Shown piece by piece: positions 10,705-63,389 of a stretch of 64,000 bases of DNA. Source of the stretch: Mytilus trossulus. Taxonomy: Eukaryota. The DNA lies in contig NC_086381.1 of the NCBI RefSeq assembly GCF_036588685.1, positions 12,896,001 to 12,960,000 of the forward strand. Direction: 5' to 3'. Both the position numbers and the translations under genes were made by a program. Below the pieces are notes generated by a model. That model saw only the letters and a list, made by a program, of their open reading frames with translations. It searched no databases and was not told where the DNA came from. The stretch's first letter is position 1, and each line of letters opens with the position of its first letter.

Positions 10705-10875
10705 GTATACATATAGGTGGTGGGAGACTCCATTTGTCGCCTGAACAGATGATAATTTTTGTTCCAAATAACTTGTATTTACGAAAGCATCTGAACTTTG
10801 CAATTCTGCCTCTTGCTCGCAGTCTTACTCGACCATGTGCTGGATTTTCTAAGGTTGCACAATTTTGGCCAAAAA
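10705..10875 (-). CDS. Paralog A coding exon 2: Sushi/CCP domain 1
   Basis: 171-bp phase-1/phase-1 exon with cag acceptor and gtaagt donor. Translation [57 protein letters not shown] shows the CCP C..C..C..W....P.C pattern. Confidence 0.9.
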
Positions 10876-11769
10876 CTGAAAATAAAAATATGAATATTGG
10901 TAAACGGAGATTGGTCAAATATATAAAAAGTACATTGACCTTGAAATAGCCCAGAAGACAACTATGCTGTCACTAGTAATGACAAAGAAAAAGCATGGAA
11001 TATCAGCTTAGTTTAATTTATTCGTATTTAAATAAGCATTAAATTTCATAAGAATCAACGTATAAATATAAATTAAGCACATAGTCTCCCATACTTCTGC
11101 AAGGGTAGTATATACAGGTTTCATAAATACGGCCCTACTTTTGGTGACAATTTTTGTATGCTTTTTTTATAAGAAATGATTCAATTGAGAAAACAAACGA
11201 CTTATTTATAACAAAACAATTAACCAAAAAAAATATGACATACATGAACCAGGGACAACCACAGAACTACATGCTCTTGACTTGATACGGACACATATAG
11301 ATGGTGATGGGATTAACCATGTTCGTCAGCGCCCCTTCAAAATTCCACTCCCTAACCTGGGACTTTGGTGTTATAACGACATATGATTATATAAAAAAAT
11401 CAATTGAATAGACTGATCTCTTCAGATCGATACTAAGTAAACAAAAACCAGACCGGACGTGGCATAGTACTTATACATTCCTAACAATAAAACAGACACA
11501 CAGTACAAATCTACGAGTACTCTCAGTTACATACTGCTAGTTATTGCTTTGAAAATACCGTTTACTGTTATGTATCCATGGCACGTAAAATGAAGTAGGC
11601 GTTCAAGAAATAAGAGTATTAGGTATCTGCAACCTATTTATTTCATTGATTTCAAAGTAAAGGTTATATGCAAAACGCAGCATAGCAATAACATGAGACC
11701 TCGATGTTAGGAAATTCCAGATGCAAAGTAATTTACGTAAGTTATAAAAAAAGACATATACTTAATTAA

Positions 11770-12455: not shown

Positions 12456-12459
12456 TTAA

Positions 12460-17560: not shown

Positions 17561-17619
17561 TTATACAGGTATACCAAACGATTACCGAATATACAAAGAT
17601 GCACTCAGAGATGTCTTAC

Positions 17620-17677
17620 CTTGCAACGTTTCCAACATTAAAAATGATAACATAAATTGCAAAACTATATTCCTCAT
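17620..17677 (-). CDS. Paralog A coding exon 1: signal peptide
   Basis: ATG...MRNIVLQFMLSFLMLETLQ+G|gtaaga. 58 bp, phase 1, matches exon 2. Same length as the homologous exon 63332-63389. Confidence 0.8.
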
Positions 17678-23299: not shown

Positions 23300-24560
23300 T
23301 TTTTGAAATCTTGGTTAAACAAAAGTTTCTTCAAATTTTTCACAACTTTATTAAGAATACCTTCCCATTTCTTACTGCTATAAAATCTATATGTACAGTT
23401 CCTAGATTAAAAATAGTATACATGTCCTTTGAGGACTTTTCGGAATATTAATACTAAAAGATATAACAGCCTTTTTTCTCATTTTCAGTGTTGATTCCAA
23501 AGTTGTAGCTATTTTTTAAAGTGATAATATGAGCCCTTTAAACTGTAAAAACATGGGTTTGAAATTATACATTATATATTTTTTTTTATATGATAATATA
23601 TTTCCATGTTAACTTAACAGGTCATTTACAGTCCAAACCTCATTATGTGCCCAAATTTTATAGTAAACGCTGACGTTACCAATTTTAATATGTTCGTAAT
23701 GCCGTATAGATGTCAAAATTACTTCCTCAAATGAAATGGATGTTTGAGTATTGACATAATTTTCCAAGCATGAAAAACAATCATACCAAAATCTGTTTTT
23801 TTGATTTTTTTAATAATTCTAAAATAACCAAACGGGATAAATAATTGTTTTGACCATTTTTGTAATATTTTTACTATTTCTTATATTGGAGGAGCATAAT
23901 TTAGATTTTTAAAACATTCTATCTAAATCAACACACATAGATACACCAAGTAATTTAAAGGCACCGAAACCCCATTTCAGTCCCAATTTTTCACATATTT
24001 TTTCCTGACTCTGTGCTTTACTACACATCCTTATCACTTTCATTTTGTCTAAATTGATTTTCAGTCCTGATATTTCCGCATAGAATTGTAATTTACGGAG
24101 AAATGCATCAAGTGAGGGAGGCGATCCATCTAGAATAAGTGATGTGTCGTTTGCATATTGAGACAAGACACTATGCTCTGAATCATCCATCGTAATACCC
24201 TTTCACTCATCACTATTTCTTTTAAAATTAAATGCCTAAAATTTCAACACATAGCAAGAAAATATAAGAAGACAAAGTATTGACCTGGTTCAGCCTCTCT
24301 CCACACAGAAAAAGTCTGACAGACACCGTTCTGGTTGACAGTTGGTGTAACATAATTGAAAAATGATAATATCCGGTTTACAATAGAATCTTCAAAATTA
24401 AAATACTTCAGTGTTTCAAAGAGATAAGCCAATGCTATATAGTCAAAGGCCTTCTCAAAATCAATGAGTAATAATATACCAGGTATATCAATTTCCTCTG
24501 TAAAGTGTAAAATATCATATTAAGTTTACAGTTTTCCCCAATAAATCTACCCAGAATAAA
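23300..24560 (-). mobile_element. Decayed L1/Tx1-clade LINE reverse transcriptase fragment
   Basis: LLIDFEKAFDY (about 24440-24470), SQYANDTSLIL (YADD motif mutated) and ISGLKINLDK, with multiple frameshifts. Confidence 0.75.
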
Positions 24561-26266: not shown

Positions 26267-26490
26267 TTATACATTCCGAGCAAGTAAGTTTATGCTTTCG
26301 GTTCCCCTCTGTCCTATACATTTCTTTTTATAAAGAACATAAATTGCGCTAGTCATTATCATCAACACAATTACTATTCCTACTCCTTTACCAATCATAA
26401 GTACTTGTTGAGTATGGGTTTGTTGTACAACAGATGCGGTTGTATTGATTGCAATTGTTTCTTCATTACCACGAGTACTGTCTACATAAT
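26267..26490 (-). pseudogene. Paralog B terminal TM exon (degenerate)
   Basis: YVDSTRGNEETIAINTTASVVQQTHTQQVLMIGKGVGIVIVLMIMTSAIYVLYKKK... is homologous to 45545-45822. It has a Lys in the TM, and the homologous tail (GKDSDAGYH) lies in another frame. Confidence 0.7.
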
Positions 26491-26990: not shown

Positions 26991-28656
26991 CTATAAAAAA
27001 TTTATAATTTTGAAATTTGAATCTTTTCAGAATTTAGCAGAATTGAGGAATAACAGTACTATTGAACGGGCAGTTTCACTACAAAGGGAGAAAAACAGTG
27101 AAACCAATATTTGAGACCATCAAATTCAATTATGTGAGTATACCTTTATATTTTGGGAGCGATATGACCAAAAGATAAAAAATAAAATAATAGCTGAATT
27201 CATCTAAGGTTAACATTTCTTGATAAAAAATGAAAATCTAATTTCTTATTATTTTCTCGATTCATCAAAGGAGAAATGTTTAAAGAGTAGTGGTGTCCAT
27301 GTTCCGGAAGTATTTTTTTTATTCTATATATGAATGTATTTTCAAAAGTAAAACTTTTTCACAAAGTGACCAGTACAACACCTGTAGGGCAAGTTGTATA
27401 CATCGAATAATTTTCACTTTATTGCAATCAAATGTCTCATAAACTTGAAATATGTAATAAAATCAGTATTTTGTAAAAATCGTCACTTTCATATGAACAA
27501 GCAACAGGGATTTTTTCTTTTTTATTTTGGATAATTACAAGATTTGTGGATAAGGTGTTGAGTGTTATTTGTGAAACTATTTTATACCACGAGGGCGTAA
27601 AACAGATGTGTATCTTTATGTTGGGTTAATAAGGAAAAATAACGGATCCGATGTGAAGCCTGGTAGACAAGAATAACTTATAACAAATGTATTATTCTTT
27701 AACGTACCATTTAGAAATTAATGTCCACATACTCTGTGTCGTTTTGAAAAAATCTGTAGAAATCAGTTTTAGGGCACTTTTGGTCACGTTAAAGCTAGCT
27801 AAAACTTGTATGGACAACATCCACGTAGTTCCCTTAGCAATAATTTTAAATTCAAAGACAATCATATGTTGTCTTCGTAAAAAAGGAAGAACATCTTCTT
27901 TGATTTATTTTCGGGTATATTGATGATCTTCTGTAACTAAATAATCTACATTTCTGGTAGTGCGTTCATCTCATGCTTCCCACTAAACCTTATATAAAGA
28001 ATGATACTGAATGTAGGTCTTTGTTGTCGTTTGATCTTTTTCTTGATGTTGATATATACTCCAACTTTCACTAGAGTTAATGACACATATGGCAACGGCC
28101 CATTTCTCACCATATATCACTTTGTATCCGTTGTATGTTCAGGGTTGTGGAAATATCAAATTATTTACTTGTCCATGCAAAATCTACTAGACTTTTTGTT
28201 TTATTGTTCTAACTGTCTGCTTACATAGCTTTTAGACTATCCAGAGACGATGGACATACTTTTTCACATCCCTAAAGTCGTATTCATATTTCAATCAACG
28301 CGTGCAGTATAAGTAATATACAACATTTATTAACAAGGTTGATATTACACAAAATTTCGCAGACAGTATTATGAGCAAAAAGGGATTGAATTCAAACGTC
28401 CGGAGTGTAAAATAATCATAATGAATGAATTGACCAACACGAGCTTTTGCGTCTTAACTCACTGGCAATACCATTTCATGTTCTTATTTCTTTATTCGCT
28501 ATTATCGTGAATTTACCTCCTGTGTTGTATTTCACATTGTGATATTTTGAGTGTGTTTGATTAAGCATGTACAGCAGTGATACCATTGTATTGAAACATT
28601 CTTATTTAATAAAATGTATAATTTGAAAGTAAGTTGCCTATCACATGAATAGTTAC

Positions 28657-28802
28657 CCTAAAATACGTTTTTCGTTCTCCGACTGGAAATTGTCCTTTGA
28701 TCCATTCGTCCCCTTGATTACCAGAAACGTTGAACTCTGCATTTTGTGATAACGTATCCGATTGTCCCAGTTCTTCAATATATATTTTTAAGCTTCCAAC
28801 TT
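28657..28802 (-). CDS. Paralog B exon 6: MAM domain part 3
   Basis: 146 bp, cag/gtaact. [49 protein letters not shown] contains the MAM GxQGxxW motif. Confidence 0.8.
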
Positions 28803-29550: not shown

Positions 29551-29691
29551 GGTTGTGTCCTACTTCTCCCCACATGTGATACCAGATCTCAAAACACAGA
29601 CCGCCTGTTGTAGCAGGAAAATATGGAGATAGTAGTCTTGCTGTGTCGTTCATTTTTACAGGAGAAGATGATTCCATAAACATATAATGCC
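29551..29691 (-). CDS. Paralog B exon 5: MAM domain part 2
   Basis: 141 bp. [42 protein letters not shown] contains the MAM motifs GxY, ARLxSP and CxxxWYHMxG. Confidence 0.8.
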
Positions 29692-30422
29692 CTGTAATAA
29701 ACAAGAAATTCGATTCACATATCTGTCATACCAATCAGGAGATGATGATTCCATAAACATATAATGCCTTGAAATAAACAAGAAATTCGATTCACATATC
29801 TGTCATACCAATCAGGAGATGATGATTCCATGAACATATAATGCCCTGAAATAAACAAGAAATTCGATTCACATATCTGTCATACCAATCAGGAGATGAT
29901 GATTCCATGAACATATAATGCCCTGAAATAAACAAGAAATTCGATTCACATATCTGTCATACCAATCAGGAGATGATGATTCCATAAACATATAATGTCC
30001 TGTAATAAACAAGAAATTCGATTCACATATCTGTCATACCAATCAGGAGATGATGATTCCATAAACATATAATGCCCTGAAATAAACAAGAAATTCGATT
30101 CACATATCTGTCATACCAATCAGGAGATGATGATTCCATAAACATATAATGCCCTGAAATAAACAAGAAATTCGATTCACATATCTGTCATACCAATCAG
30201 GAGATGATGATTCCATAAACATATAATGCCCTGAAATAAACAAGAAATTCGATTCACATATCTGTCATACCAATCAGGAGATGATGATTCCATGAACATA
30301 TAATGCCCTGAAATAAACAAGAAATTCGATTCACATATCTGTCATACCAATCAGGAGATGATGATTCCATAAACATATAATGTCCTGTAATAAACAAGAA
30401 ATTCGATTCACATATCTGTCAT
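29659..30422. repeat. 10 x 77-bp tandem repeat spanning the intron 4/exon 5 splice acceptor
   Basis: Units start at 29659, 29736, 29813 ... 30352 (CAGGAGATGATGATTCCAT...). Confidence 0.95.
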
Positions 30423-30646
30423 ATCAAGCAATTATCTGATCAAATAACATATTACTTCATATTTTAGATTATGTTTACTTTCTTTTTTAAATCGTGACTT
30501 TTGCATTAAGAAATAATTCGTTTACATATTTTTTATCAACACATTGTGTATACTATAGAATCTCTCATTCCTTTTTGTATTTTTCAAGCTTCACTTTCAT
30601 CACAAAAGAAAAGAGAACCTCAAAAATTTTACGTTAATTTTCCTAC

Positions 30647-30805
30647 CGTTTCCATCTTTACCCAAGGTATGGTCATATTTCGGACCTGTACGTCGAGTAG
30701 GTGTGGTACCAGAATTCCATTTCCATTCAAAGTTTGCTAGTTTATCATGTTGGCAACCACATATATTTTCATCTTCAAAATCACAAAATTTTTCATGTTC
30801 TTCAT
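30647..30805 (-). CDS. Paralog B exon 4: MAM domain part 1
   Basis: 159 bp. [43 protein letters not shown] contains the CDFE and TGPxxDHT motifs. Confidence 0.85.
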
Positions 30806-31258: not shown

Positions 31259-31423
31259 ATTCACATGACGGGACTGGAGCACTCCAAGTTGTACCATCAC
31301 ACGTGATCAATTTCTCGCCTGTTAATTTGAATGATGGAGCACATTTGAATTCTAATACAGCACCACCTTGATCTTTTATGACTGTAAGATTTCCTGAAGA
31401 TGGAATTTCATCACAACCGGTCC
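31259..31423 (-). CDS. Paralog B exon 3: Sushi/CCP domain 2
   Basis: 165 bp, cag/gtacgt. [54 protein letters not shown]. Confidence 0.85.
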
Positions 31424-33507: not shown

Positions 33508-33678
33508 GTATACATACAGGTGGTGGGAAACTCCACCTGTCGCCTGAACAGATGATAATTTCTGTTCCAAATAATTTGTATTCACGATAGCATCTGAACT
33601 TTGCGATTCTGCCTCTTGCTCGAAGTCTTACTCGACCATGTGCTGGATTTTCTAAGGTTGCACATTTTTGACCAAAAA
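33508..33678 (-). CDS. Paralog B exon 2: Sushi/CCP domain 1
   Basis: 171 bp, cag/gtaagt. [57 protein letters not shown]. Confidence 0.88.
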
Positions 33679-45544: not shown

Positions 45545-45822
45545 TTATGTTTCAAAATGATAGTCTACCTCGCTGTCTTTCCCATATTTATATATTTCGA
45601 ACAAGTATTTTCTAGCTATCGGTTCCTCTTTGTCTTCGAAAACATCTTGTCTTTTGCGATTTTTATGATGAACATAAATTGCGATAGTAACTATAATTAA
45701 TGTAATTACTATACCAACTCCAATACCAATCATGAGTACATTTTGAGTAGGCTTTTGTATTACAGCTTCGGTTGTATTAGTTGCAGTTATTTCTTTATAA
45801 CTACGAGTAATGTCCATATAGT
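45545..45822 (-). CDS. Paralog C exon 11: juxtamembrane, TM and cytoplasmic tail
   Basis: [23 protein letters not shown] followed by basic HHKNRKR and a tail ending DYHFET*. Confidence 0.85.
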
Positions 45823-48800
45823 CTACAAAAAGAAATATTCACTATTTTTACTGAAATTCTAAAATCAACATAATTTTACTTAAAATGGAAACAATGACGT
45901 ATGCGACTAGTAGAACCGGAACTTTTTACCCTTATCGTTCATCGATTTTCATCTTATAAAGCTGATAAAAAGCCTTTTGCTGAAAATGTTTAAAGATAAA
46001 TGGGTGTCCTTGTTCTTGAAGTTATTGTTTATACTGTATGTCATAGTAAATGTTTTTACTTTCAGTTCTTTTTCAAAAAGTGACCAATAAAAATAATACC
46101 TGTAGGCGATGCTGCTAATTCTTCTGTTTTTACTAGACGGGTAACTGTTGTTGCCAAACTTGACGAGGCTTCAGTGGTTCCAATACGTCTACGATATATT
46201 GTTGTGGTTTCTGAACCTGACTTGCTTGTATCAATTGCCGTTGTTTCTTGGTAACTGAGAGTACTGTCCGTATAATCTACATATAAAAAACTATGTATTA
46301 GAGTTGAATATTCCGTATCTACATCTTTTTCTTGCAGTTGATTACTATGAGTATTGTCCGTAAAATCTAGAAATTCAAGTATTCATTAAAGCTGTACCTT
46401 ATTCAATCATTTCCATATTTTTACTGAAGCCATAAATCAAACAGAATCAAACTTGACACCAAACAAAACCATTTTACTTAAAATATTTAAAGAGTAATGG
46501 ATGTCCTAGTTCTTGAAATTATTTTGTATACTATCCATTGTTATAGTTTTCAAAAAGTGATTGATATAAATAATACCTGTATGGGAAGCTGCTAATTCAT
46601 CTGTTGTTTTAACTAGACGGGTTACTGTTGTTGTCAAACTTGATGGGGCTTCAGTGGTTTCGAAAGGTATATGATACATCGCTGTGGTTTGCACATCTGA
46701 CTCAGTTGTATCGATTGCAGTTTTTTCTAGGTAACGAAGAGTGCTGTCTGTATAATCTACAAATTCAAATATTCTCTATAGCTTTATTGATATTTAAAAT
46801 TATTATATCATTTCTATTTTTCACTCAATGCCACTTATCACCAGAATTTAAACTGTCATGAACAAAATGACGAATGTGACATTTGGAACCGGAATCGTTA
46901 AACCTTCCCATCCACCGGGGTTTACCTTATGTTTAATAGGTGTGCGTTGTTTTTTGTATAACTTTAAATTTTTGCATAGATTCATGAATATATTTATATA
47001 AATGGAACATAGAAAATGTTTAAATATTGATTATAATTGGTTTTTTTTCAATGTTAAACGTTCAGTAGTATTTAAAAAGCGATCAATATGAATAACACCT
47101 GTAAGGGAAACTGTAAATTCTTCTGTTGTTTTAGATATACCGTTAACTGTCATTGCTAAACTTGACGAGGCTTCAGTGGTTTCGAAAGGTATATGATACA
47201 TCGCTGTGGTTTGCACATCTGACTCAGTTGTATCGATTGCCGTTGTTTCTTTGTAACGAAGAGTACTGTCTGTATGATCTACATATAAAAATCTATGTTA
47301 TAAGGTTAAATATTCCGTATTTACATCTTTAGCTAAACAGGTCTTTACAAAATAATTCAACTGGTTATAAGCAATAACGACGGATTTAATTTGTTGAATA
47401 GGAACTGTTCATCGCATTTAAGTTTATGTTAATTTATAAACCATTTAAAGTCTCCGCAACACTGATAACTGAGCTGACGAGACGGTATAGTGTCACATAT
47501 TCATATAGAGTACTCGCAATAAACTCGATATTAAACAGTAATATCTTGAAAACGTCAGCAGTTACAACGTAAAGTTTTCACAGTTGACTACGACTGTCTT
47601 CCAAGCTATTATTAGCAGAAATCTATAATAAAAAATGGCGTTACATGTCACATTACATTCAAAAAAGTTCTGAAGTCTCTTAATAAGACAACTTCTGCCT
47701 GGAAGCCAATAACAACAACCGAAATAATCAAGTAGATTTTTTAAGTACATACATTACGTAAGTTTGTGATAAAAGTAAATAAATCAATAACCAAAAATAA
47801 TTATCACCAGGACACTGAATTTTTGCTTGTGTTTATTACAGAAATATATGTTTGAGGATTTTCGAATTAATAGTAATGCAATAATCATGGAACAGATCAA
47901 AGACATATATTGAAATACTTATCCATTTAGCGTAATTGTATCAGTAAACCAACTTATTTTTCATAAAAATCACATTTTTTCTTCAAAAAAGTTTTACATA
48001 ACATGAGTTTGAACATATCTTGTTAATGTATAATGAAGATTACCAAAGGTTAGATTTAACAGCGTAAACCTTATCGCCATCCCCATTGATTAGCGATGAA
48101 AAAACAGTTGTATAGTGTAAGACCAAACTTTAAAAAAAAAACATTAGCTATAAAATGAGCATTACTTTATTGTGGTAATGCACACGTTTGATATTTTATT
48201 AGTAGATAGACCAGTTACTGTCATACCTGAATCTAGACTCTATTTGATAACAATATCTATTAATCTGAATATGAATACAATAATTTGTTATAGAAAGCAG
48301 TAACTAGAGAAGAAGTTTGTCTTATAAACCCTACACAGTCGGTGACTTCATAAAGCAAAGACGTCATGCCATCGACTTTTTTACAACCTTTTATTTTTTT
48401 ATTTTTTTTTTGACATATGTGTTCCTTTTTATAGTGATTATGCGACTGTCATACAAGTAAAAGGTTTAGTTAGTTTTAAAACTAGGTTTTTACAACCATT
48501 GTGTAAATAAGAAAACGCATAGACCAAGTCAGGAATAGGACAGTTGTTTTCGATTCCTTTCGAGTTATTAGCTTTTGATTTTCACGTTTGATTATGAACT
48601 TCTAGGATATCCAAATTCATGTATTTAGTTTTGATGTTATATTTCTTATTCGCATCGGACTTTGTCTAATGCTTAGTTCGTTTCTGTGGGAGTTTCTCTC
48701 GGTTTTGGTTTATGATCCGGATTTGTTGTTTTTTCTATCGATTTGTGAGTTTTGAACATCGGTATACTACTGTTGCCTATATTTATTTCCGATTGGATAT

Positions 48801-51800
48801 TTTTGAGGGTATTTTTCTTTCTAATATCTCTGCACTTTATAATAAAAGATGTGTTAATGATAACACACGGCATTTGTTACAGCAGTGAGCTGACAGTTAC
48901 TGTTGCAACAGTATTGCAATTTCTAGTCAGAATATCTAATTGATTATACAATACAGATAATTATAATACTTTTATTGACCTACTGCAAGATTGATGATCA
49001 ATTGTAAAACGTACCGTCTGAACAGTTGTACAGTTTAGGATCATCTACAGAAATATCACTCAAGTAACTTTTTAACTTCATGCCTTCAATTATGAACTGA
49101 AAATGTCAACACAATATTATGTTCTTTGTGAAGATTGTAATTCAAAATGCAATTATCTGTTAAGATGTAATGCTACATAACAATTGCTTTTTTAAACTTA
49201 TATCGCATTTTCTTTTAATTCGGATTCACCTGGTTTTAAATGAACTGTTTGATACTATTAAATTAAAATAATGTACATCATAGCATTAAAAACCTAAATG
49301 TAATTCGATTTACCAACTCAAGAACGTTTATACACGTTAAAAGCAAAATATTTTTAAGAAATCACAAAAACCATAAGTTTCATTACAAACAAATGTTTCT
49401 ATTTTACATTTTCTACTTGGATTCACCGAATGGGCCTAAAGGAACTGTGTGACCATGGAAGACAAATGTACATACAAGCATTAAATGATGCATAATGAAT
49501 CAATGTACTTCATATTCAACAAAACCATCTAAGGCCAACCTGTTAAGTTATGATCTCTACCTGTTACCAATCTAAGTGAAATAAATCATGACCAAATACA
49601 AAAAAATGGCTACTCGGTCGTTTGTTTCAACAGATTCAACTTTACTGCAATAAAAATGGACCACAAAATAGAAACATTCTTTGATAATAAAACAAAAAAT
49701 AGAAAAATAGCCACTGAATTGTGCATCTTAAAATTTTGTTTAAAAACGTTTCGTCAGGAAGAACAAGAAAAAAATCCATTTTCGGTTCGCGTTTAAACGT
49801 TGCAGATCTCTTTGAATGAAAAAAAAAGACAGTGATTCCGATAACTTAAGTGTCAGCCGTTTGGTATAGTTTTCCGGATAAAACATACATGAACATGTAC
49901 ATTGTCAGAAAATATGAAATTTGATAGTACAAGCTACGAAATATACATACACTGTAAATTATTTTTTTTTATCGAATAATGATTTTGAAGATCTACCTTT
50001 TTTTAGCCTAAAGACTTTTAAAGATGACCACCATGAAATATGGGTAACATTTTATAAATTTTGTTCAATAAGGTAATTGGTATAAGCACTGTCACCCTAT
50101 TCTTAATGATGTATGTCAATATCTTTACTAGAATGATGTTCGTGAATTTGTTTATAAAAGTTTACAAATCAAATGTCCACCATCTTTAAAATGGCCTCAT
50201 TTCCCACCAGTTTTGAATTTTTAGAGTGGGTTCATTGCGAACATGTTTTGAATGACATATTCTGCACTTATGCTAATTTCTATGCTTTTACTACAATTTG
50301 AGCATTTTTGCCAAAAATGCCAAAAATAACTCTTACGTGCTTACATTATGCAGAATTTATGATTAATGTGCTTCTTACATAAAATTGCTCAAACAGAGGT
50401 TAGAACAAAAAGGAATGAACTTGACAATTCTTGAGCTCCACTCACATCGGATTTTGTCTAATGCTTAGTTCGTTTCTGTGTGTGTTACATTTTAGTGATG
50501 TGTCGTCGTTTTCCTCTTATACTTTCCCTCAGTTTTAGTTGTTAACCAGTATTTTTTTCTATCGATTTATGAAATTTGAACATCAGTATATTACTGTTGC
50601 CTTTATTTACAAAAACAATCATGAATTGAATTAATGACACGAGCTGAAAATATGATTTTGCGTTGTTAGATCTTATTATATCAGAATAGTTGTCTGATTT
50701 GTAAGTTACCTTTGGAATGAGTTAGAATTCTAATTGTAGGTAATGCATGTAATGCAGAAGATAGCATTGTATTGATGCGGAACACAACATAATCTCTTTT
50801 AAACGTATAGTTTGAAATTAAGGTGGCTATCACATGCAAAGATACCCTAAAAGACGTTTTTCGTTCTCCAACTGGAAATTGTTTTTTTATCCATTCGTCC
50901 CCTTGATTCCCAGAAACTTCAAACCTTGCTGTGTGTGATAACGTATCAGTTTGTCCCATGTCTTCAATATATATCTTTAATCTTCCAACTTCTGTTTAAA
51001 AAATAAATAAATATGAGTTTCTTGTTTTTTTTATGAATACAAGTAATACATTATGGCAATGTGATGAAAATGTCATTTCATCAAAGAAGCCCGGTTATTT
51101 AATTTCACATTCAGATATATTGATTTCCTATTAACAACTCTATCTTTTCTTATCTGTTTCCATTAATACAGCCACCATAAAAAGAAATAAAACAAACAGC
51201 AGACACTGCTTCCTTCACCTCATTTTAAGACTTATACTTCAAATTTGACATAAACAATCATCTCAGTACAGGAATCTATGACAAGCGAGACGATTTTGAT
51301 TTGGCAATTTTCAATTTCCTCCACGTAAGTTACATTATCTTACTTCTTATACAATTCAAGAAATGTGATTGATTAAAAGCGCCCTCGTGGAGATCGTGTA
51401 TATTTCTTATTAGGTTAGTAGGGAGGAGGGGCTTATCTCATACACGGTATGTAGTGGTGTTACGTCCCTTTATATACCATATAAGGTAGAAGGGAGGCGG
51501 GGTGTATTTCATACACGGTGAGTAGTGGTGTTGCGTTCCTTAAGAAAAACAAAACGGTACTGAGAAAAAATACGTAAAGGTTTCAACAGACGAAGAAATT
51601 GCTTATTAAGCATGAAATATATTCATAAAACACATTTAAACCTAACAAGTTGTTATTGTTGGTATCTGTTTGTGTAGGATCAATGAAAGTAGTTTCTTAA
51701 TGCTATCAGTATGGAAGACTTGCTCATTTTGATAGGTCACTAGTCTAAATTTTACACGTTCAGATAGTTGGTAAGATAAATTTATTACAAAGTGTGCTAG

Positions 51801-54800
51801 TGACCTTATACGCTCTCACTTCATATGGAATTTACTGACCCCATATATACCGTATTAGGTCACTAGCACACTATGTAACTAATGATATACCAACTCACCT
51901 GCATATGGGATATATATATTCCAACTTATTCGGTAATCAAGAGCTTTGAAGCTACTACTCATATTTTGTTAAACGTCCCCAGTGTCTGAGCAGAAAGTTG
52001 ATGAAAGAAGGGTATGTCAAGAACTTCTCATCCTTTTTTCTATAAAAGTCAATCGGAAGGTACCAAGACCTTGTTGATAAATATTCCATATCAGTTTCAC
52101 AAATAATACACGATGGAATTGAATTATAGATTCTGGTACAGACGTAGTTAATCATCCTAATTACGTGTTGTATTAATTTTTTTATGTCTTTATGAATATT
52201 TCTTTTAAGGTTTAGTCCGTTTAGGTGTTCTCCATTAGACGTGACTCTTTATCTTATATCTAACCATCGTGTTATTGTTTTATGATAATTTTGTATTTTT
52301 GTCTTTCATTTTAAAATGTGCTTTGTCTATATGAATTTTGTGCTTCTTTGTTACATATTTTTGTTTTATAGTGATTAAGATCATAAAACAATGTTGAATA
52401 CTCTAACCATAATTTTGACATTGTTATCTATTATGTCTGTTTGTTTTGTTTACACATCGTTTTCAACATAATGGAATTTAATGCGACTGTCATTCAAGTG
52501 AGAGTTTTAGCTAGCCATAAAACTAGTTTCAATCAACCATTTCCTACATAAGAAAATGCATGAACCAAATCAGGAATATAACAGTTGTTATCCATTTGTT
52601 TGGTGTGTTGGAGCTTTTGATTTTTTTCATTTCATAAGAGACTTTCCGTTTTGGATTTTCATCGGAGTTCAGTTTTGTTGTGATTTTACTGATGCAAATT
52701 TCAAGGTTTTGACACAGAAGACTATAATATGGGTCATTCGCAATTTGTTTCAGATAGTATTAAAACATGTTTATCTGTATGATTTCATTTAATAATTGAC
52801 TGTAATATCTTTTCTGTCTATGAAATAAATAATATTACAATTGTGGTGCACACTGGATAACCAGCGTATTCTCAAAAGGTGTAAATATTGATGACGTCGC
52901 GGTCATTTGACAAAATTGCGTCTTTGATCTGATAGTCAAAACACCTTCAGCCAATCAAAGGATGTGTTTCATTCAAAATTAAATTAATGAAATAAATGCT
53001 ATAATTTCGAAAAAGATATTCTGTTATATTTCAAACACTGTATTTTACATTTTTGTAAATTATGTTGAAATCGATAAATAAGGTTTTAATTAAATTACGT
53101 TAAGAGTGTCACAAATATCAGTATTTTTACTAAAAAAACGCTGAAAAGTTCCTTTTAATTCTGTAGACAACGCTGTATATGCAATATGCCAAGACGTAAA
53201 AGTAGAGTCGAAACCGGCCCATTAAGAATTCTCAGTTGGTTGATGTAACAGGACAATTGTAATGTTTAAAATATTACGTATTTTCCTAATTGTTTTGAAA
53301 CTCGTACAATTTAAACAAAGAACCGGGTTTTATTTAATAAATTCTTTATATAATATCTTAAAAAATTTGAATATTTTTTACGAAAATTTGCAGAAAAAAG
53401 TCAGAAGAAACAAATGGAAAAATTTGAATCGAAAAATAAAGACTGAGTAACAGGAATCCTGCTTCAACTGGGATTGATACGAGGTGCTCCTGTAGGGAAA
53501 TACCGATCCTGGTCATAAAATTGCATATGAATTACACTAACTTACATGCAGTATAACAAGCTATTGCAAGCTATGAATAAATATATTTGAAACCGCAAGT
53601 ATTTCATGATATGATAAATATAGTTTGTTGAAAAAAGCTTACGGTTGTATCCCATAACTCCCGACATATGATACCAGATCTCAAAACACAGACCACCTGT
53701 TGTAGCGGGAAAATATGGAGATTGAAGTCTTGCTTTGTCGTTTATTTTTATAGGAGATGATGATTCCATAAACATATAATGTCCTGAAATAACAAGAATC
53801 CTCTTTACATAGTCGTCATATGAAACAAGTATCAATTCAGATAAACACTTTACTTTATACGTTTGAAATATGTGTAGTTTCTTACTTAATTGCAACTAAT
53901 GCACAAGGAAAATAATTTTCGTTTGTGTATAATATATAATATTTATTCGGTAACACTTTTTTTTTTTTTTAAATAAACATTTTGATTTTCATCTCCTTTG
54001 AAAAAGAAACTAATTCCCCTTATTTTACGTCCATTTTCCTACCGTTTCCACCTTTACCCAAGGTATGGTCATATTTAGGACCTGTACGTCGAGTAGGTGT
54101 GGTACCAGAATTCCATTTCCATTCAAAGTTTGCTTGTTTATCATGTTGCCAGTCACATATATTTTCATATTCAAAATCACAATAATTTCCTGGTTCTACA
54201 TCTGCTTACAAAAACAAAGCAAAGAACTGCATAAGACATTTCAAAACGTAACATTGCAATGCTTTATTCATATTGGGTTACACACAAAAGAAATACTGTA
54301 CCATTTTATCATCTCTACGATTAGTTTTCTTTTAAAAATATATTATTTAACTCAAATAATATGCTTTATATTAAAAGTGATCTTTCAATTATTGTCGAAT
54401 GACACAAAGAGGCGCTTGTCACATGAGCAGATTAATAATGTCAAACGGTTAATTTTGTTTTTGTTTTAAATTATGTATTATATTTTAGACATTGCTCGAA
54501 ATCTATCTGTGTTTTATATGTTTTATTTGTTTTGTTTCGTTTTCATATTGAATTAAATGTTTACAAATGTGTTTTTCTATGAAGAATAAACATAAGATTT
54601 CTATTGATCAATATAACGCCATGTCAAACAGAAACACCTCCGTCATTAGCTTTTGGATGGTGCCGGCATTTAAAATTATTGTTGAAAACCTTTAGTAATT
54701 GAAGAGAAATTAACTTTTTGTCGCAAACATTTAGCTTTCTTGATTTAAACGAAATAAACCGTTTTGTTTTTGAAAAATAAATTTTTGAAAAGGTTGAATT

Positions 54801-57800
54801 CGGATGAACATCAAAATATACGTACATTTACATGAAGGGACTGGGGAACTCCAAGTTTTACCATCACAAGTGATCAACTTCTCGCCTATTAATTTTAATG
54901 TTGGAGCACATGTGAATTTTAGTACAGCACCTCCTTGATTTTTAGTAACTGTAAGATTTCCTGAAGATAGAATTTCATCACAACCGTTTCCTGAAAATAA
55001 ATGGTTTATGATTTATACTTGTACAGTTTATGATATTTTGTCTGCTTTATAGATGATTATTCATAAAAACAAACCTTTATTCATCCATTTGTATATTAAA
55101 TCTTTAACAGAGTTTTGGTTATAAGTATTAATTGTTGAGGCTACATTTAATTGAGGTCTAGCTAATGATCGGATTCATTTGCCTTACATAGCAGTTGTAT
55201 ATGTTGTAGTTGTAAAGTAGTTGGTTAGAATTGACAATAAAGTTGTTATTAGTTTGAATATAATTGTTACTGAATTTCATCAAACAGTTTTAATGTAAAA
55301 TATATCAAAAATTATGTTATGTAAACTGAAAAGATTAATTGTTAAAGTTAAATAACAGTTAAATATCTGAAAGTATACTAGTACACAACATGTAAGTAAA
55401 TATAGATATCAAACCTTCGTTCTATTGAATAAAGTAAATAAATTTGCATATATGGAATCGCTTTAAGACTGAACGTAAGAAACATCTTTAGTATCAAAGA
55501 ATTGAGAATAGCAAGAATGTTTTTTTTCAAAATATGTTTTAAAGGCTTGTTTTTCTGAATAATTATATAATAAGGAGAAACTGTGAATAGCTAAATTGTC
55601 AGCAAAACCCGGCGCCGTGTCATCGACTCAGGTCATTGAAGGTGTCTTAGGACTAAGATATGTCCCAAAATCATCTTAAGAGAATGTACTGCTCTTAGTC
55701 GTGGTATCTAAAAGATCTTATCTTATGATATCTCACAATTTTGTTCCAAACTACGTTAGGACTACTAATAAGCTGTCTTAGGATAGTCTTTAGACCATTT
55801 CAACTGTAAGAACAGCTTTGTGATTTCCTACCATATATATAATCAAACATGGTTTACATCATTATGCCCTAGTATAGCAACTTTTTGAAACTAGGGGGGG
55901 GGGGGGCAGGAGGTATTTGTCAAGATAATACATAAGTAATAAACGATCGACTCGATGGAATTATAACACCTTACTCCCCCCACACACATACACGTAATGT
56001 GAGTGTTGTATTATGGTCCATATTTCTGTGTTCAATTAATAATTCATGTCTCAATTTGTTATACCAAGATTACACGAGATTTCCCTTTGAACTATAAAAT
56101 CAGTTTAGCACTTTTGAGTTCGTCAAATCTAATTATTTATAACTGAAAGTATATATTTATAGATTATTGTTGATCATCTCAACGAGATTGAATTTCTCGC
56201 TTGAGCCGGTACAAGGTGATTATCAGTCAAGATGATCAAAGGAGAATATCGTGAAATTAGTATGTGCAAAGATGATTTGTATTATTAAATAATTCATATT
56301 TTCTAGCTGTATTGAAGTAGTAATTATGCATATGCTCAAAGCATTTCAATTCATCATAAATTATGTTTGTAATTCTTTTTGTCTTTATTATCAGTTTGTA
56401 GATGAAAACATTTTTGGTTTCGAAAACTTACGGCCTAACTTATATACAAAAACAAATATGTAACACATAAACAAAAAACAACCATTGAATTACAGGCGCC
56501 TTACTTGGGACAGGCACATACATACAGAATGTGGCGGGGTTAGACATGTTAGCAATAGACCTTTCAGTCGATATAAGCAGACTCATCGGAATTTAATTGC
56601 TGCTTGAAAGTTTCAGAGGGGCTTACTAAAAGTTTTGGGTAGTTGGTATAACTTACTTACGTATACAAACAGGTGGCGGAAGACTCCACTTGTCGTTTGA
56701 ACAGATGATAATTTTTGCTCCAAATAACTTGTATTTACGATAGCATCTGAACTTTGCAATTCTGCCTCTTGCTCGCAGTCTTACTCGACCATGTGCTGGG
56801 TTTTCTAGGGTTGCACACTTTTGGACAAAAACTAAAACAAAATATAAAAAATGGTAAAAGGAGATTGGTTAAATATACAAACTTTCAGTCCAACAGGACA
56901 AACCAAAACATACAGTTACAATTTGTGAAAAAATTGATGCCAAAAATTGAAAACGAAAATATGAATATTAGTAAAATTGGATTGGTCAAATAAAAAGAAA
57001 TGTTGTTAAATAGGACGACCAATAGTATAATATCACATTTAGGACACACCAATATAATTGTTTTGCATTATCTGTCTTGGATAATTTCTTACGTTTTCGT
57101 TATTGGGATAACTATGTGTTTATAATACAAGTGGTCAGTTACATTTATTTCCATATATTCATATCTATTATAAGAGGGTGGTAAAGGGTTATTCTCGTGC
57201 AATGTTTTTTGGCCTTTTGGTTTCACGCGTTTTCGTGTTTTGACATATAAATTCTTATGTTCTCGTGTTTGGTTCGATGTGCCTGATTCGTGTTTTCCCT
57301 TATTTATTTTTCGTGTTTCGTGTCGGCTCTTTGTTAGTTCAATTAATCATGACGTCTTGAAAGGCTGTTATCCTTTTTTACTTTGACCCCTTGCAGCGAC
57401 GTTGTAAGGCGTCAAAGCAAAAAAAATGTAATACCCTTTCAAGACGTCATAATTATCTGGACTTGATCTTTGTATGAAATGTGAAATAATACTTTGCACA
57501 ATAAATGAATTTTATGAACGCCTCACAGTAAAGAGAGTAAACAAAACAGCTTACATTAAGAAAAATGAAAAACGTACATCAACGTATCAATAAATGTAAC
57601 AGCTGTCCTTCATCAGATGATGTAAAATGATTTTCATTAATATATACTGATATCCGAAAACAATCTTGATCGTAATCCAATTTTGACACTAAACCAAAGT
57701 TATGTATTTCTTTAATCTAAAAGTTCACGAAAGTATGTAAACATTCAAAATGAAAGGGAAACTGACCAAAACAAACATTGAGTTACAGAGGGCAAATGCA

Positions 57801-60800
57801 TAAGATAAGTTCGGATTTTTAATGGAATGTTAATAAATAATCAATTTTACTATATTTAAAAGAGGGACGAAAGATACCAAAGAGATAGTCAAACTCAAAA
57901 TTTGAAAACAAACTGACAACGCCAAGGCTAAAAAAACGACAAACAGACAAACATAGTACACACAACATAGAAACACGAACCCCATTGAAAACAAGGGGTG
58001 ATCTCAGGTGCTCCGGAAAGGTACGCAGATCCTGTCCCTCATGTGGCATCCGTCTTGTTGCTCATGTTTTAACAAATCCGGTAAATAGTCTAATACGGTA
58101 GGTCACATTCATGAAAAGGAAGGGAAGGGATTATAGTAATACGACGTAGTGTACATATCCGATATTATCTGTGTAAACGGTTATTTAATAACGGTCGTCA
58201 ACTCGTGATGACGTCCGTAAAATTTACGAAGGGATGATTTCAATTGGAACTATAAAAAAGAAGATGTGGTATGATTGCCAATGAGACAACTATCCACAAA
58301 ATACCAAAATGACACAGCCATTAACAACTATAGGTAACCGTTCGGCCTTCAACAATAAGCTAAGCTCATACCGCATAGTCAGCTATAAAAGGCCCCAATA
58401 AGACAATGTAAAACAATTCAAACCAGAAAACTAACAGCCTTATTTATAAAAAAAAATGAACGAAAATCAAATGTAACACATAAACAACCGACAACCACTG
58501 TATTACAGGCTCCTGACTTGGGACAGGCACATACATAAATAATGTGGCAGGGTAAAACATGTTAACGGGATCCAAATCCTTCCGCTAACCTGGGACAGTG
58601 GTATAACAGTACAACATGGAACTGTTGGTTTAGTAGCTTCCTTGTATACCGTATGCAGGTGATGCTGAAATGTTGATACTTAGAAATGGAAAGTTCACAT
58701 TTGGAAAGCTATAATATTCATTATAGCAAAAATAATGATATATGGAATAATTTCTACAATGTGCACAAGTAACAAAAGAGATGGATAAATACAAGATTGA
58801 AATTCTAGGACTAAGCGAAGTCAGATGAAACACATTAGGTATGACAAATTTGAAAAACAGGCCACATAACTATATATTCTAGAAACACCAAACAAGATGA
58901 CCCCAATGAAGTGGTTGTTGGATTTCTTATAACAAAAAGATCTAAAACAACCTTGCTAGATTCGAATCCCATCTCACCATAATTATATCACAGCACTCTT
59001 TAAATCACGTTTAAAGAAAAATCTTTGATACAAGTATATGCCCCTACCAATGGTGCAGACGACTGTGAAAAGGAAGATTCTATCACTCGTTACAAACAAC
59101 CATAGAAAAAGTGCCAAAAAGAGACCTATTGGTACTCATATGTGGCCGTACTTTAACCTATAATGGTTTAATTTTTAAATTGTTATTTGGATGGAGAGTT
59201 GTCTCATTGGCACTCACACCACATCTTCCTATATCCAATTAAGGCCAAGGTTTGATTAGACAGAAAGGGATTGGAGAGAGAAATTGGTCCTAATGGGATA
59301 TGCAAAATGAATGAAAACGGCGAACTTTTTGCAGACTTCTGTGCTACCAACAACCTTGTTAGAGGAGGAACACTCTTTAAACTCAAAAATTACCATAAGG
59401 TAACCTGGGTGTCACCAGCAGGAAATGTAGAAAACAAAACCCAAAACCAAATAGACCACATAACCATTTCTCAAAGATCGAGGTCTTCACTGCAAGATGT
59501 AAGGGCAAAATGAGGAGCAGATGCAGCATCAGACCATCATCTAGTTATAGTGTAAAAAAAGATGAAATGTTTAGCCCAAAAAAAGAACAGTTGTCAAAAG
59601 AAGAAAGTTTAGCGATGCTAAGCTCAGAATACCAAACATAGGAGAAGAATTCCAAATATCTCTTCAAAACCGATTTTTAGCTATAAGTGACCTGGATATA
59701 GAGAACAGCAATATTAATGACACAAGGGAGCAGGCAAAAAATGTAATCATAGAAACATGCGAGGAAATATTGGGATAAATGCAGTCTAAATGCAAAACTG
59801 GATGTCAGATGATACAAGGTTGAAGAAAGGAGAAAGGCCAAAGAAAAAGTTTTAAATGCCACCACAAGACAACAGAAAGCACAAACAAAAGATCTTTATA
59901 GTGAGACAAAGAAGTAAAGAAGAACTGTAAACATGACAAAAGAGACTATGTTGAACAACTAGCGTACGAACCAGAAATTGCCTGTAGCAAAAGAGACATA
60001 AAATATCTCTACAACACAACTCGACAAATTAGTGGCAGAATTTCCAACTCAAATGCTACAGTTAAAGACAAAAATGACAATGTAATTACAAAATGTGAAG
60101 AACAATTAAATCGATGGAAAGAACATTTTGAAGAAGTGCTAAACAGGCTCCTTCCCAACAAACCCACCTAACATCGAAGGGAGACAGGCCCTAAATATCA
60201 AGGTATATATAACCAAAAAAGAAGTTAATGCGGCAAAAAAAAACATTTGAAAAATAAAAAAGAAGGAGGGATCGACAACACCCCCTGAAGCTATTAAGGC
60301 AATGGATTACATCTGTTTTGGTAAACTTCACCAACTACTTAAAAAAAATTGAAATGACGAACAGATACCTGAAGATTTGAGTAAAGGAATCCTCATTAAA
60401 CTAAAAAAAAAAAAGACGATAAAGCCATCGTTAGCAACTGGAGAGGTATTTTTTTGCTTTCCAATTCTAGCAAGGTCCTATGTCACATCATCCTACAAAG
60501 ATTAAATTGCTGAGAGATGAACAGTCCGGTTACAGACAAGAGAGATTATGCATTGACCAAATTGCTACACTAAGAATCATCATTGAGCAAACCATTGAAT
60601 GGCAGACAACCCTATACCTAACATTTGTAGATTTTGAGAGGGTCTTCGATAGTATAGACCATGAAGTACTGTGGAAAACCCGTAGGCATTATGGAATACC
60701 TGACAAAACGATATCCGTCATCCAACAGCTCTATGACGGTTTTAATTGTCAAGTGAGCCATGCAGAGACCCTGACAGATCCATTTTCTGTAACTACTGGT

Positions 60801-63389
60801 GTGAGGCAATGATGTTGACTCTCCCCTCTCTTATTTCTGATGGTTATAGATTGGGTGAGTAGGAAATCATACAACACTCCTCACGGTATTAAATGGACAC
60901 TACAGTCATGCATCGAAGACCGTAAGGTTTGCAGACAATATTTTCCAAGACTCACAAAATCAAGCAACCAACCTTGAAACAACTGCAAAACAAGTAGGAC
61001 TGTATATTAATGCAAATAAGACCAAATATATGAGAGTAAACGCAAACAACTTTAACAAAATCAAAATGAGAGATGCTGAAATTGAAGATGTCTGAGGATT
61101 TACATATCCTGGAAGTGTAATCAGTACATCAGGTGGGACAGATGAGGACATCCAATCTGGAAAAAGAAAAGCACAACAAGCCTTTGCAATCGTTAAACCA
61201 GTCTGGAAGAGCAAAGCATTCAGAACAAATACCAACATCAGGATCTTCAACTCCAATGTAAAATCTATACTTCTCTATGGATCAGAAACTTGGAGACTAA
61301 CAGCTGTATCAAAAACACCACAAGTTTTCATGAACAGGTCTTAGGAACATAATTGGAATCAAGTGGCCTAACACCATTAGCAACAAAAAACTATGGAAAA
61401 GGACTAAACAGGAACCAATAACAAAAACAATTACGACACGAAGATGGAAATGGCTTGAACGCACGTTACGTAAATCAACACTAATGAAAATAGACAGGAA
61501 CTAGATTGTAATCCGCAGGGCCATCGTAAAAGACAAAAATCCACATGGCGCAGAGATCTTACATCTGATCTACAGAAAATTGGGAAAACATGGGGAGAAG
61601 CAAAGAAAATAGCCAAAGAAGGATGGAAAGCTACTGTAGTCGCCCTAAGTCAAGTAAGAATCATTTCTAGCACATCGTAAGGGAGAATTTTTACTTCGTT
61701 CAAAGTATACTACTGTGTTATGGTTATTATTTCTAGATCTGATCGTTCGTTTTTACCAAGAGTTAAAACATTAAACGGTACAAATGTTACTGTACTAGTA
61801 CAATACATATGAACATTTGTTTGTTAACAATTTTATCAATTTTGACATGTGACATACACATTGAAATCGGTAAAACGATAATTGGGAAAATTGTATACGA
61901 GTTGATATCTAAAATAATATGTGTATGTCTAAAAATATTAATGATCTGGCACTGACACACCGTGTCTTCATGGGATAAATATTACAGAATGTATGAAGCA
62001 GTTGAAATATAGATCCCTCCGGTAAGTTGACACTAAATTGATTTAGCTTTTATCTTAAATACATTTTCTTCATATAGCTTTTCACGTGTTTTCCTCGGCT
62101 TTCAAATATTTGCTTTTGATGTCACTCCGAACGAGGAAAGCGTTTCGAATCCATAACATTGTAATGTGCAATAACATTTATTTTTTCTTAGCTTCATATA
62201 AATGAATATCTAATAATGGTTGAAACCCACTTCGTCCTTTTATTAAAAAAAACAACAGTTTTATGACTCATCGTTTTACACTCTTAAACTAACCAGTTGA
62301 TATAGAATATCACAAAAATAACAAAATAAAACATAAGAATTTAGTTAATATTAGGTCTAGAAATAATCTTGTTTTTATATTTCAAATGAAGTACAAAATT
62401 CCTTATAATGTCCTCCATGTTCTATTTTACAAATGGAAAACATGGTCTACGTCAAACTGCTTTATTCATCACACAATTTCATAAGTGTTATGACTTCTGT
62501 TTATTAACTTTAAAATTAAAGAATCTTGAAAACAAGGAAATAATGAACTTATCTGTTAGTATCATAAATGTGTAAAATTATGTACATATCCTCTTTGTCA
62601 CAATTTAAACAGATAGTATCGTTTAACAAGTTTTTGCACACTCTGGGATTTTGATCGACAGAGATAACTTGTTGACATCTTAAATGACCTGACTATATAG
62701 ACCAGTTTGAAAAAAATTATGTGAATATTTGGTATTGTTTATATCTGTAAATTATATTTGTACAGAATCTATCTTGTTGAAAGAAACTTTAAACCACTAA
62801 AAGAAGAATATATGCTTCATTACTTTTCTTCCGTTTTCAGATTCTTTACCTTGATGTCCTGACAAATCTAATAAAATTTCAACTAATGAATTTTGAAATC
62901 TAGGTTGTAGCTTGATATAAGATATGAAAACACCTTATGAGTTATTTGTTATACTCTAATGACGGCTCTAATATCAAGAATGCATATTGTGTTGAATAGA
63001 AGTGGTAAAGTAACTTAGTTATAGTTTTATATAAAAAATCTTCTGTTGCAATTACTTCAAGGTTAGGGTCTAATTTATTCTAGATCGACTGGACTAATAT
63101 CACAAAGGATGGTTATGAAATGATTTGAAATTTTGTATTTACACCAGACGTGTCTACAAAAGACTTGTTAGTGATGCTCGAATCAAAATGTAATATTAAA
63201 GCCAAATAAAATACAAGGTTTGTGAGCACTGATCTCTGCTTATTTTAACTTCTTGCATAAGATATAAGTCAGTATAACACAAAGAACACAAAATATTAAC
63301 CCTTTTTTAGTGATGTAATCATACTACTTACCTTGTCGAATTTCAAAAGCTATTAATAGAAAAACAAATTGGAAAAGTACAGTCCTCAT
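45545..63389 (-). CDS. Paralog C (whole gene, 11 coding exons): Sushi x2 - MAM - mucin stalk - TM protein, about 578 aa
   Basis: Exons 58+171+165+159+141+146+82+180+180+177+278 = 1737 nt. All junctions are GT-AG with compatible phases, and no internal stop was found. Confidence 0.85.
46100..46276 (-). CDS. Paralog C exon 10: Thr/Ser-rich repeat 3
   Basis: 177 bp, phase 1/1, homologous to exons 8 and 9. Confidence 0.75.
46577..46756 (-). CDS. Paralog C exon 9: Thr/Ser-rich repeat 2
   Basis: 180 bp, phase 1/1. ...[38 protein letters not shown]. Confidence 0.75.
47099..47278 (-). CDS. Paralog C exon 8: Thr/Ser-rich repeat 1
   Basis: 180 bp, phase 1/1. [60 protein letters not shown]. Confidence 0.75.
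49015..49096 (-). CDS. Paralog C exon 7: MAM domain C-terminus
   Basis: 82 bp, phase 0/1. [27 protein letters not shown] contains the MAM DIxxDD...C motif. Confidence 0.85.
50846..50991 (-). CDS. Paralog C exon 6: MAM part 3
   Basis: 146 bp. [49 protein letters not shown]. Confidence 0.88.
51230..52110 (+). mobile_element. Highly decayed Penelope-like fragment split by an unrelated insertion
   Basis: ATCTATGACAAGCGAGACGATTTT (YDKRDDF) at about 51275, continuing at about 51885 with TCACCTGCATATGGG (PAYG). Confidence 0.5.
53643..53783 (-). CDS. Paralog C exon 5: MAM part 2
   Basis: 141 bp, cag/gtaagc. [42 protein letters not shown]. Confidence 0.88.
54043..54201 (-). CDS. Paralog C exon 4: MAM part 1
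   Basis: 159 bp. [47 protein letters not shown]. Confidence 0.88.
54826..54990 (-). CDS. Paralog C exon 3: Sushi/CCP domain 2
   Basis: 165 bp. [54 protein letters not shown]. Confidence 0.88.
56661..56831 (-). CDS. Paralog C exon 2: Sushi/CCP domain 1
   Basis: 171 bp, tag/gtaagt. [57 protein letters not shown]. Confidence 0.9.
57857..58710 (-). mobile_element. Penelope-like element 3' fragment interrupted by a SINE-like insertion
   Basis: Collinear with 19220-19800; encodes the remnant [20 protein letters not shown]. Confidence 0.75.
58252..58616 (-). mobile_element. 5'-truncated SINE-like copy with 7-bp TSD
   Basis: TGGAACT is duplicated at 58245-58251 and 58617-58623. Homologous to 505-1412. 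Confidence 0.75.
59030..61660 (+). mobile_element. Decayed RTE-clade LINE (APE endonuclease + RT), multiple stops and frameshifts
   Basis: [21 protein letters not shown]...NQIDHI, ASDHHLV, EQSGYR...[22 protein letters not shown] and TGVRQ. Confidence 0.88.
63332..63389 (-). CDS. Paralog C coding exon 1: signal peptide
   Basis: [19 protein letters not shown]+G|gtaagt. 58 bp, phase 1, homologous to 17620-17677. Confidence 0.8.

Follow-up and report, generated by a model that had tools for sequence, protein, structure and literature searches.

What kind of protein is encoded by a tandem gene family of the mussel Mytilus trossulus, and what might it do at the cell surface? The window analysed here is 64,000 nt of AT-rich animal DNA, and comparison of the window with itself revealed the same exon set in three copies (A, B and C), all on the minus strand. 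The initial annotation had read them as receptors with two Sushi (CCP) domains, a MAM domain, a mucin stalk and a transmembrane (TM) segment, an architecture to which it could put no name. We found that this order, CCP-CCP-MAM-Ser/Thr stalk-TM, is the layout seen in scavenger receptors of class C (SR-C). Copy C is best read as a molluscan SR-C in the broad sense and not as a member of the insect four-domain subtype or as a complement regulator, and the mussel family is very probably homologous to arthropod SR-C. With less assurance, we regard the locus as a tandem SR-C-like cluster in which copy C would act as a surface pattern-recognition and uptake receptor, a reading that the combined analyses make reasonably likely.

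Gene C consists of 11 exons running from 63389 to 45545 on the minus strand, and every intron is GT-AG. Its coding sequence of 1737 nt has a single stop, at its end, and the product of 578 residues is a 100% match to M. trossulus RefSeq protein XP_063400693.1 (P0001). The description of C as intact, with about 578 residues, is thus borne out by eleven exons in one open frame. Pfam searches of the gene C exons and of P0001 gave Sushi, Sushi and one MAM domain that is spread across exons 4-7, the full MAM of P0001 spanning residues 139-305. The hydrophobic N-terminus (hydropathy peak at residues 3-22) is a predicted signal peptide, and one TM segment is predicted at about residues 515-533 (Kyte-Doolittle 2.91), where the model has a helix. 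In the AlphaFold model of C the CCP-CCP-MAM head is confident and the stalk is disordered (pLDDT <50 over 309-516). The Ser/Thr-rich stretch between MAM and TM has 208 residues (36% Ser+Thr), and its exons 8-10 are mutual duplicates, 59-75% identical and all of phase 1-1. The parts of gene C are as follows.

63332..63389, minus strand: exon 1, predicted signal peptide by hydropathy (58 nt, phase 1)
56661..56831, minus strand: exon 2, CCP1, net charge +12 by charge count (Pfam Sushi E 1e-5)
54826..54990, minus strand: exon 3, CCP2 (Pfam Sushi E 4.7e-7)
54043..54201, minus strand: exon 4, MAM part 1 (Pfam MAM 1-41)
53643..53783, minus strand: exon 5, MAM part 2 (Pfam MAM 44-84)
50846..50991, minus strand: exon 6, MAM part 3, phase 0 end (Pfam)
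49015..49096, minus strand: exon 7, MAM part 4, with the last strands, conserved acidic residues and last Cys (full MAM in P0001; spliced joints)
47099..47278, minus strand: exon 8, Ser/Thr stalk repeat 1 (37% Ser+Thr; 75% amino acid identity to exon 9)
46577..46756, minus strand: exon 9, Ser/Thr stalk repeat 2
46100..46276, minus strand: exon 10, Ser/Thr stalk repeat 3
45545..45822, minus strand: coding part of exon 11, with the stalk end, predicted TM (Kyte-Doolittle; model helix), cytoplasmic tail of about 45 residues and stop

Gene C is real and expressed. Contigs from four of the five listed public runs (two studies) were placed on 44800-57200 at 88% likeness; the run kind, 'RNA?', is a guess, and the runs carry no tissue record. 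Nine introns lie inside that stretch and intron 1 lies outside it. Among the joints listed, at least eight of the nine introns were joined exactly at the predicted ends, each in three or four runs, and the exon 9-10 junction was represented by a near-site joint only, in two runs. One contig carries 312 bases of the last exon of C with zero differences, and exon 3 was matched with zero differences in three runs, while some contigs may derive from alleles or paralogs. The initial annotation had noted that the family would be in doubt if spliced transcripts did not exist; since public contigs join the introns of C at their predicted ends, this objection does not apply.

Three minor features of gene C were also recorded. 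Residue 22 (in 56661-56831), likely the signal-peptidase -1 position, is Val in C and Gly in the other 14 aligned Mytilus proteins, and from this sequence difference the cleavage site of the C signal peptide may be shifted. Identity of exon 2 reaches 95% with a long-mucin paralog from M. trossulus itself but only 79-80% with the C-type proteins found in other members of the genus Mytilus, a pattern that hints at gene conversion. Intron 1 holds a broken reverse-transcriptase element on the opposite strand (59905-61341, plus strand; RVT_1 E 9e-9, DUF6451 E 6e-15).

SR-C proteins are defined by a CCP region followed by a MAM domain, in type I or secreted form (PMC4493455). Insect SR-C additionally has a somatomedin B domain and a Ser/Thr region (PMC6191154), and the shrimp receptor MjSRC (Marsupenaeus japonicus) is described as having two CCP domains, a MAM and a TM without somatomedin B (PMC5222524). 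Gene C has the N-terminal CCP pair followed by a single MAM, the Ser/Thr region and the type I membrane layout. The best PDB match for the MAM of a paralog head was the Spodoptera SR-C structure 8YT7 (phmmer E 1e-27, first of 37 rows), which was also the first MAM entry in a PDB profile search (E 1e-45) and Foldseek rank 1 with the C model as query. A homolog profile search, in which the best 8000 candidates were scored, returned 45 proteins, including a Priapulus fragment and 17 insect-type Sushi+MAM proteins (15 from named insects and one assigned through a cluster mate), 11 of these 17 with a precomputed somatomedin B; one of the insect-type rows matched 8YT7 with E 6e-81. C shares 34-40% identity with the 17 rows over 238-296 residues, colinearly across all three head domains. 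For comparison, Sf-SR-C and dSR-CI are about 27% identical (PMC6191154).

Kinship was also apparent domain by domain. With CCP profiles built from 15 insect sequences alone, CCP1 of C scored 59.9 bits against 32.9 for the best of 423 other CCP matches, and CCP2 scored 45.3 bits against 34.1 for the best of 434. The best other-CCP score was exceeded by 20/26 mollusc-type proteins for CCP1 and by 23/26 for CCP2, and the top non-insect scorer for both profiles was a Priapulus caudatus fragment (P0197) comprising CCP-CCP and the start of a MAM. A CCP1 net charge of at least +5 was found in 15/15 insect and 17/24 mollusc-type rows and in 2/291 other CCPs. In a FastTree phylogeny of 80 MAM domains, 27 mollusc-type rows, 16 insect-type rows and one astacin-Sushi-MAM protein grouped together (0.80). 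In these comparisons the outgroup domains are matches to C rather than a curated set, the SR-C side consists of insect-type rows with no curated SR-C sequences, and six mollusc-type rows were assigned by similarity only.

Several results weigh against an SR-C identity or against a role in microbial recognition. With the insect MAM profile a multi-MAM protein scored 172.6 bits, above C with 149.4, and none of the 26 mollusc-type rows exceeded the best outgroup score. In an IQ-TREE analysis of 65 MAM rows (15 of the 80 left out), the mollusc-insect join received 64/74 and had four outgroup rows inside it; a single mollusc+insect MAM clade was not rejected by the approximately unbiased (AU) test (p 0.27), which is no proof of such a clade. 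The insect rows had been gathered with a mollusc profile, which introduces some selection bias. No somatomedin B was matched by Pfam in 23 mollusc-type proteins, and nothing resembling the insect tail motif is visible in the cytoplasmic tails. Furthermore, CCP1 is nearly constant among Mytilus copies, which suits an unchanging ligand more readily than an evolutionary arms race. The number of Cys residues after the MAM likewise differs, with 0-2 in mollusc-type proteins versus 8-9 in 16/17 insect-type rows. Because somatomedin B is absent, C is not placed in the four-domain subtype of dSR-CI and Sf-SR-C.

All 27 mollusc-type rows have the acidic MAM residues E142, D176, D298 and D299, which are, however, common to most MAM domains. 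Together with the calcium ion contained in 8YT7 (PMC11203654), they make a structural cation site in the mussel MAM plausible, though not specific.

How might such a receptor work? Its disordered Ser/Thr stalk, predicted to be O-glycosylated, would lift the CCP-CCP-MAM head above the cell coat, where the basic CCP1 and the MAM may bind polyanionic microbial surfaces such as lipopolysaccharide or lipoteichoic acid, with thioester proteins as possible further ligands. Clustering of the receptor would come next and would lead to endocytosis or phagocytosis, as in shrimp MjSRC, for which ligand binding, trimer formation and beta-arrestin/clathrin uptake are reported (PMC5222524). The picture is drawn from shrimp and insect SR-C proteins, which are reported to bind microbial polyanions and viral or thioester proteins via CCP and MAM, with clustering and clathrin-dependent uptake (PMC5222524, PMC7062681, PMC3983052). 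Since the stalk exons are phase 1-1 cassettes and the copies differ mainly in stalk length and tail, variation among them would alter reach and trafficking more than the binding head. Among the features found here, the sole pointer to polyanion or microbe binding is the basic CCP1, a feature read from the sequence. A scavenger function in mussels is, on balance, probable.

Comparison with characterised SR-C proteins brings out both likenesses and differences. By published description rather than by sequence alignment, MjSRC agrees with the mussel proteins in having two CCP domains, one MAM and a TM and no somatomedin B (PMC5222524), and its 692 residues compare with 578-671 for the long Mytilus forms. 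However, binding, trimer formation and beta-arrestin/clathrin uptake are demonstrated for the shrimp protein only, and that paper describes one gene whereas the mussel has a tandem array. The insect receptors (Drosophila Sr-CI to IV, Spodoptera Sf-SR-C/8YT7 and Aedes AaSR-C) share with the mussel family the CCP-CCP-MAM head, the basic CCP1, the Ser/Thr region and the TM, and membrane and apparently secreted paralogs occur in Mytilus too. They differ in their somatomedin B and cytoplasmic tail; in addition, the stalk of C is made of three duplicated exons of about 59 codons, and the many positively selected sites reported for the Drosophila Sr-C genes (PMC12962805) contrast with no sign of positive selection between the window copies.

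The principal competing explanation accepts true SR-C homology but assigns the protein to host-matrix or cell adhesion, as a tether of the glycocalyx or of epithelia, with a basic CCP1 that would attach to sulfated glycans of the host or to acidic proteins of its matrix. CCP1 is indeed strongly conserved in the five Mytilus species, replacement changes are not in excess between C and B (dN/dS over exons 2-6 of 0.40, Fisher p 1.3e-4), and MAM domains are described as acting in adhesion in other proteins. We nevertheless consider adhesion fairly unlikely, as the SR-C proteins characterised in PMC5222524, PMC4493455, PMC7062681 and PMC3983052 are recognition or uptake receptors and as Drosophila Sr-CI to IV (PMC4493455) offer a parallel to this tandem expansion, in which membrane forms occur beside apparently secreted ones (P0010, P0020). 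A clearly lower probability attaches to a CD46-like membrane complement regulator, or a thioester-protein adaptor for mussel C3-like or thioester-containing proteins. CD46 has an O-glycosylated stalk and TM, and PDB matches of the CCP pair include factor H, CR1, CD46 and CD55, with which C has CCP modules in common. Regulation of C3b needs three to four tandem CCPs, and the regulators of complement activation have three to four or more in tandem and no MAM. By contrast, C has just two CCPs followed by a MAM according to Pfam, which sets it outside that group and speaks against the CD46-like layout proposed initially, and its resemblance to the regulators is of the generic CCP kind (13-28% identity by Foldseek). 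An adaptor role is compatible with an SR-C identity, as mosquito AaSR-C binds a thioester-family protein (PMC3983052).

Convergence offers a further account, in which molluscs assembled CCP, MAM and mucin parts independently of arthropod SR-C, for example into a gamete-adhesion protein as the RefSeq name 'zonadhesin-like' would have it. The MAM phylogeny (64/74; AU p 0.27) leaves the mollusc-insect join open, somatomedin B is absent and the RefSeq names vary. Against this stand the position-specific kinship with the insect proteins, CCP1 to CCP1 and CCP2 to CCP2, the basic CCP1 shared with them, and the single colinear alignment spanning three domains, so that convergence appears highly improbable; nor did this analysis find any pointer to gamete adhesion, which the initial annotation had raised. 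Zonadhesin has a mucin region and combines MAM with VWD, and MALRD1/2 has repeated MAM with LDL-A. The mussel protein has one MAM and no LDL-A, VWD or Ig domain by Pfam and thus belongs to neither MALRD1/2 nor zonadhesin. What it has in common with the MALRD1/2-like, zonadhesin-like and MDGA-like proteins is one domain, the MAM, which accounts for these names. A derivation of the Sushi-MAM head from lysyl oxidase (LOX) was also rejected: Sushi/MAM-bearing LOX is described as occurring only in calcareous sponges, and no LOX domain was found in the 27 proteins scanned. An ESM Atlas feature search placed ephrin receptors at the top (0.83) and a mollusc MAM+Sushi cluster of 55 members 10th (0.79); this search served as a lead only and was not used as support.

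Returning to the SR-C reading, we found the same head in five Mytilus species and in 12 other named mollusc species, namely Ylistrum balloti, Pecten maximus, Saccostrea cucullata, S. echinata, Mya arenaria, Solemya velum, Ruditapes philippinarum, Potamilus streckersoni, Patella vulgata, Haliotis asinina, Lottia gigantea and a Gigantopelta species, and most long mollusc forms have the stalk and TM as well. Given this distribution, the family is old, and only this tandem expansion is Mytilus-specific. A lineage-specific family, as first envisaged, is therefore not what was found, since the layout occurs in bivalves, gastropods and insects. What did find support is the idea of a family for recognition at the cell surface, probably in immunity, that has recently expanded in tandem and in which one copy or more (B) is decaying. 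In the trees the Mytilus rows come together as a single clade with a long stem (100/100 with 4 rows; 100/99 with 16 rows against 4 long-branch outgroups). Mytilus proteins can have a long single-mucin stalk, a stalk of exon repeats or a very short stalk, and some models lack a TM (P0010, P0017 and P0020, whose models are possibly truncated), while CCP1 is highly conserved across the five species. In the oyster Saccostrea echinata, P0076 carries the CCP-MAM head twice in tandem with no stalk. Two near-identical models of Ruditapes philippinarum (P0145 and P0201), each on a 208,894-bp contig that is probably the same one, form a subfamily with a near-neutral CCP1, which suggests a separate duplication and a different ligand.

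If the SR-C reading is correct, the layout in bivalves, gastropods and the priapulid fragment would date SR-C to the protostome ancestor and extend to molluscs a receptor class known from arthropods. SR-C has been described as insect-only (PMC4493455, PMC6191154) or as known from few invertebrates including shrimp (PMC5222524). Mussel cells would use C to catch and engulf microbes, and bivalve immunology would gain a named candidate phagocytic receptor, since RefSeq already holds these proteins under unrelated automatic names (zonadhesin-like, MALRD-like, mucin-like and MDGA-like). The Mytilus array also supplies natural stalk-length and secreted variants for testing reach versus capture. The gain lies in annotation and evolutionary range rather than in a new mechanism. 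Among the literature matches listed, none dealt with an SR-C or a Sushi-MAM-TM receptor from a mollusc; much bivalve immunology is published in subscription journals, and as most of these and the supplements lay outside the search, this is weak evidence that a molluscan SR-C is unreported. A bivalve 'class C' match in the literature proved to be a false word match, and a CCP-CCP-MAM-stalk-TM family is not described in the accessible parts of PMC12357810, PMC4448552 and PMC4390376.

A bolder proposal holds that SR-C is an ancestral protostome receptor overlooked in molluscs because of wrong automatic names and that the Mytilus array is a diversifier, in which mix-and-match splicing of whole and partial copies would yield receptors with long stalks, receptors with short stalks and secreted ones, all from a single locus. 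The accessions of RefSeq isoforms X1-X4 run consecutively, which makes it probable that all four fall under a single gene model. In X2, exon 1 of A is joined to a different exon 2, whereas X3 and X4 coincide up to residue 195 and diverge beyond it in MAM end, stalk and tail. A long-stalk protein of M. galloprovincialis has an exon 1 identical to that of A, which makes cross-mapping of allelic reads a simpler cause of the X2-X4 joins than splicing across copies. We regard the diversifier proposal as unlikely.

The remaining two copies differ in state from C. The exons and remnants assigned to them are:

17620..17677, minus strand: A exon 1, predicted signal peptide (19/19 residues identical to RefSeq isoforms X2-X4)
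10705..10875, minus strand: A exon 2, CCP1 (100% to RefSeq X3 and X4)
33508..33678, minus strand: B exon 2, CCP1 (an exon 1 upstream of it was not found)
31259..31423, minus strand: B exon 3, CCP2
30647..30805, minus strand: B exon 4, MAM part 1, with Trp149 changed to Cys
29659..30429, minus strand: ten 77-bp tandem copies in B of the exon-5 acceptor and first 32 exon bases
29551..29691, minus strand: B exon 5, complete from the last acceptor only
28657..28802, minus strand: B exon 6
27274..27388, minus strand: in B, what remains of the end of a stalk exon and of the intron after it, 72% to C 46106-45984
26267..26490, minus strand: B last exon, with TM and frameshifted short tail, out of frame on joining exon 6

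Exon 2 measures 171 nt in all three copies, exon 1 measures 58 nt in A and C, and exons 3-6 measure 165/159/141/146 nt in B and C, with matching phases throughout. The initial claim of identical exon sizes and phases in the three paralogs therefore stands for the shared exons 1-6 and fails for the last exon of B, which differs in size from that of C owing to its frameshifted tail.

Copy B was correctly described as internally deleted, exons 7-10 being missing; exon 1 is missing too, and exons 2-6 and the last exon are kept. Exon 1 was not found by protein- and DNA-level searches of 33.7-45.4 kb, and neither exon 7 nor whole stalk exons were found, local-alignment scores being 20-30, whereas shuffled sequence reached maxima of 26-33 and a positive control scored 115. 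The 77-bp copies are 97% alike, with the acceptor altered in one of them, and whichever of the nine upstream copies is used to enter exon 5, a stop follows within about 42 codons. Joining exon 6 to the last exon gives a stop after two codons. Together, these stops make B likely a non-functional duplicate, a pseudogene as judged from its reading frames. Trp149, replaced by Cys in B, is invariant in 27/27 aligned homologs. The C-B dN/dS ratio implies that the B lineage was constrained for much of its history, and positive selection between the window copies was not detected in the C-B pairwise test, where per-exon counts are small (exon 4, 0.99). RefSeq X4 has an exon 7 in addition to an exon 5, an exon 6 and a last exon that are B-like (89, 94 and 98% identical, respectively), which indicates a further B-like copy outside the window; as the short tail is common to B and this X4-type copy, it is not a lesion specific to B.

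Copy A was rightly called partial in the window, where it has exon 2 together with the signal-peptide exon at 17677-17620 that had been missed. Exons 3, 4 and 7 of A were sought at the protein and DNA level in 1-10704 and were not found. With no later exon in the window, A represents the 5' end of another gene, which runs past window position 1.

Repeats and element remnants also occur around these copies. Between B and A lies a weak reverse-transcriptase fragment (24247-24519, minus strand; RVT_1 E 0.003). Intron 2 of A contains an inverted repeat of at least 2759 bp with 99.1% identity (1-2759 and 6207-8949), which extends past the window start and is either a foldback element or an assembly artefact, and this repeat encloses a 17-bp satellite at about 3345-5667.

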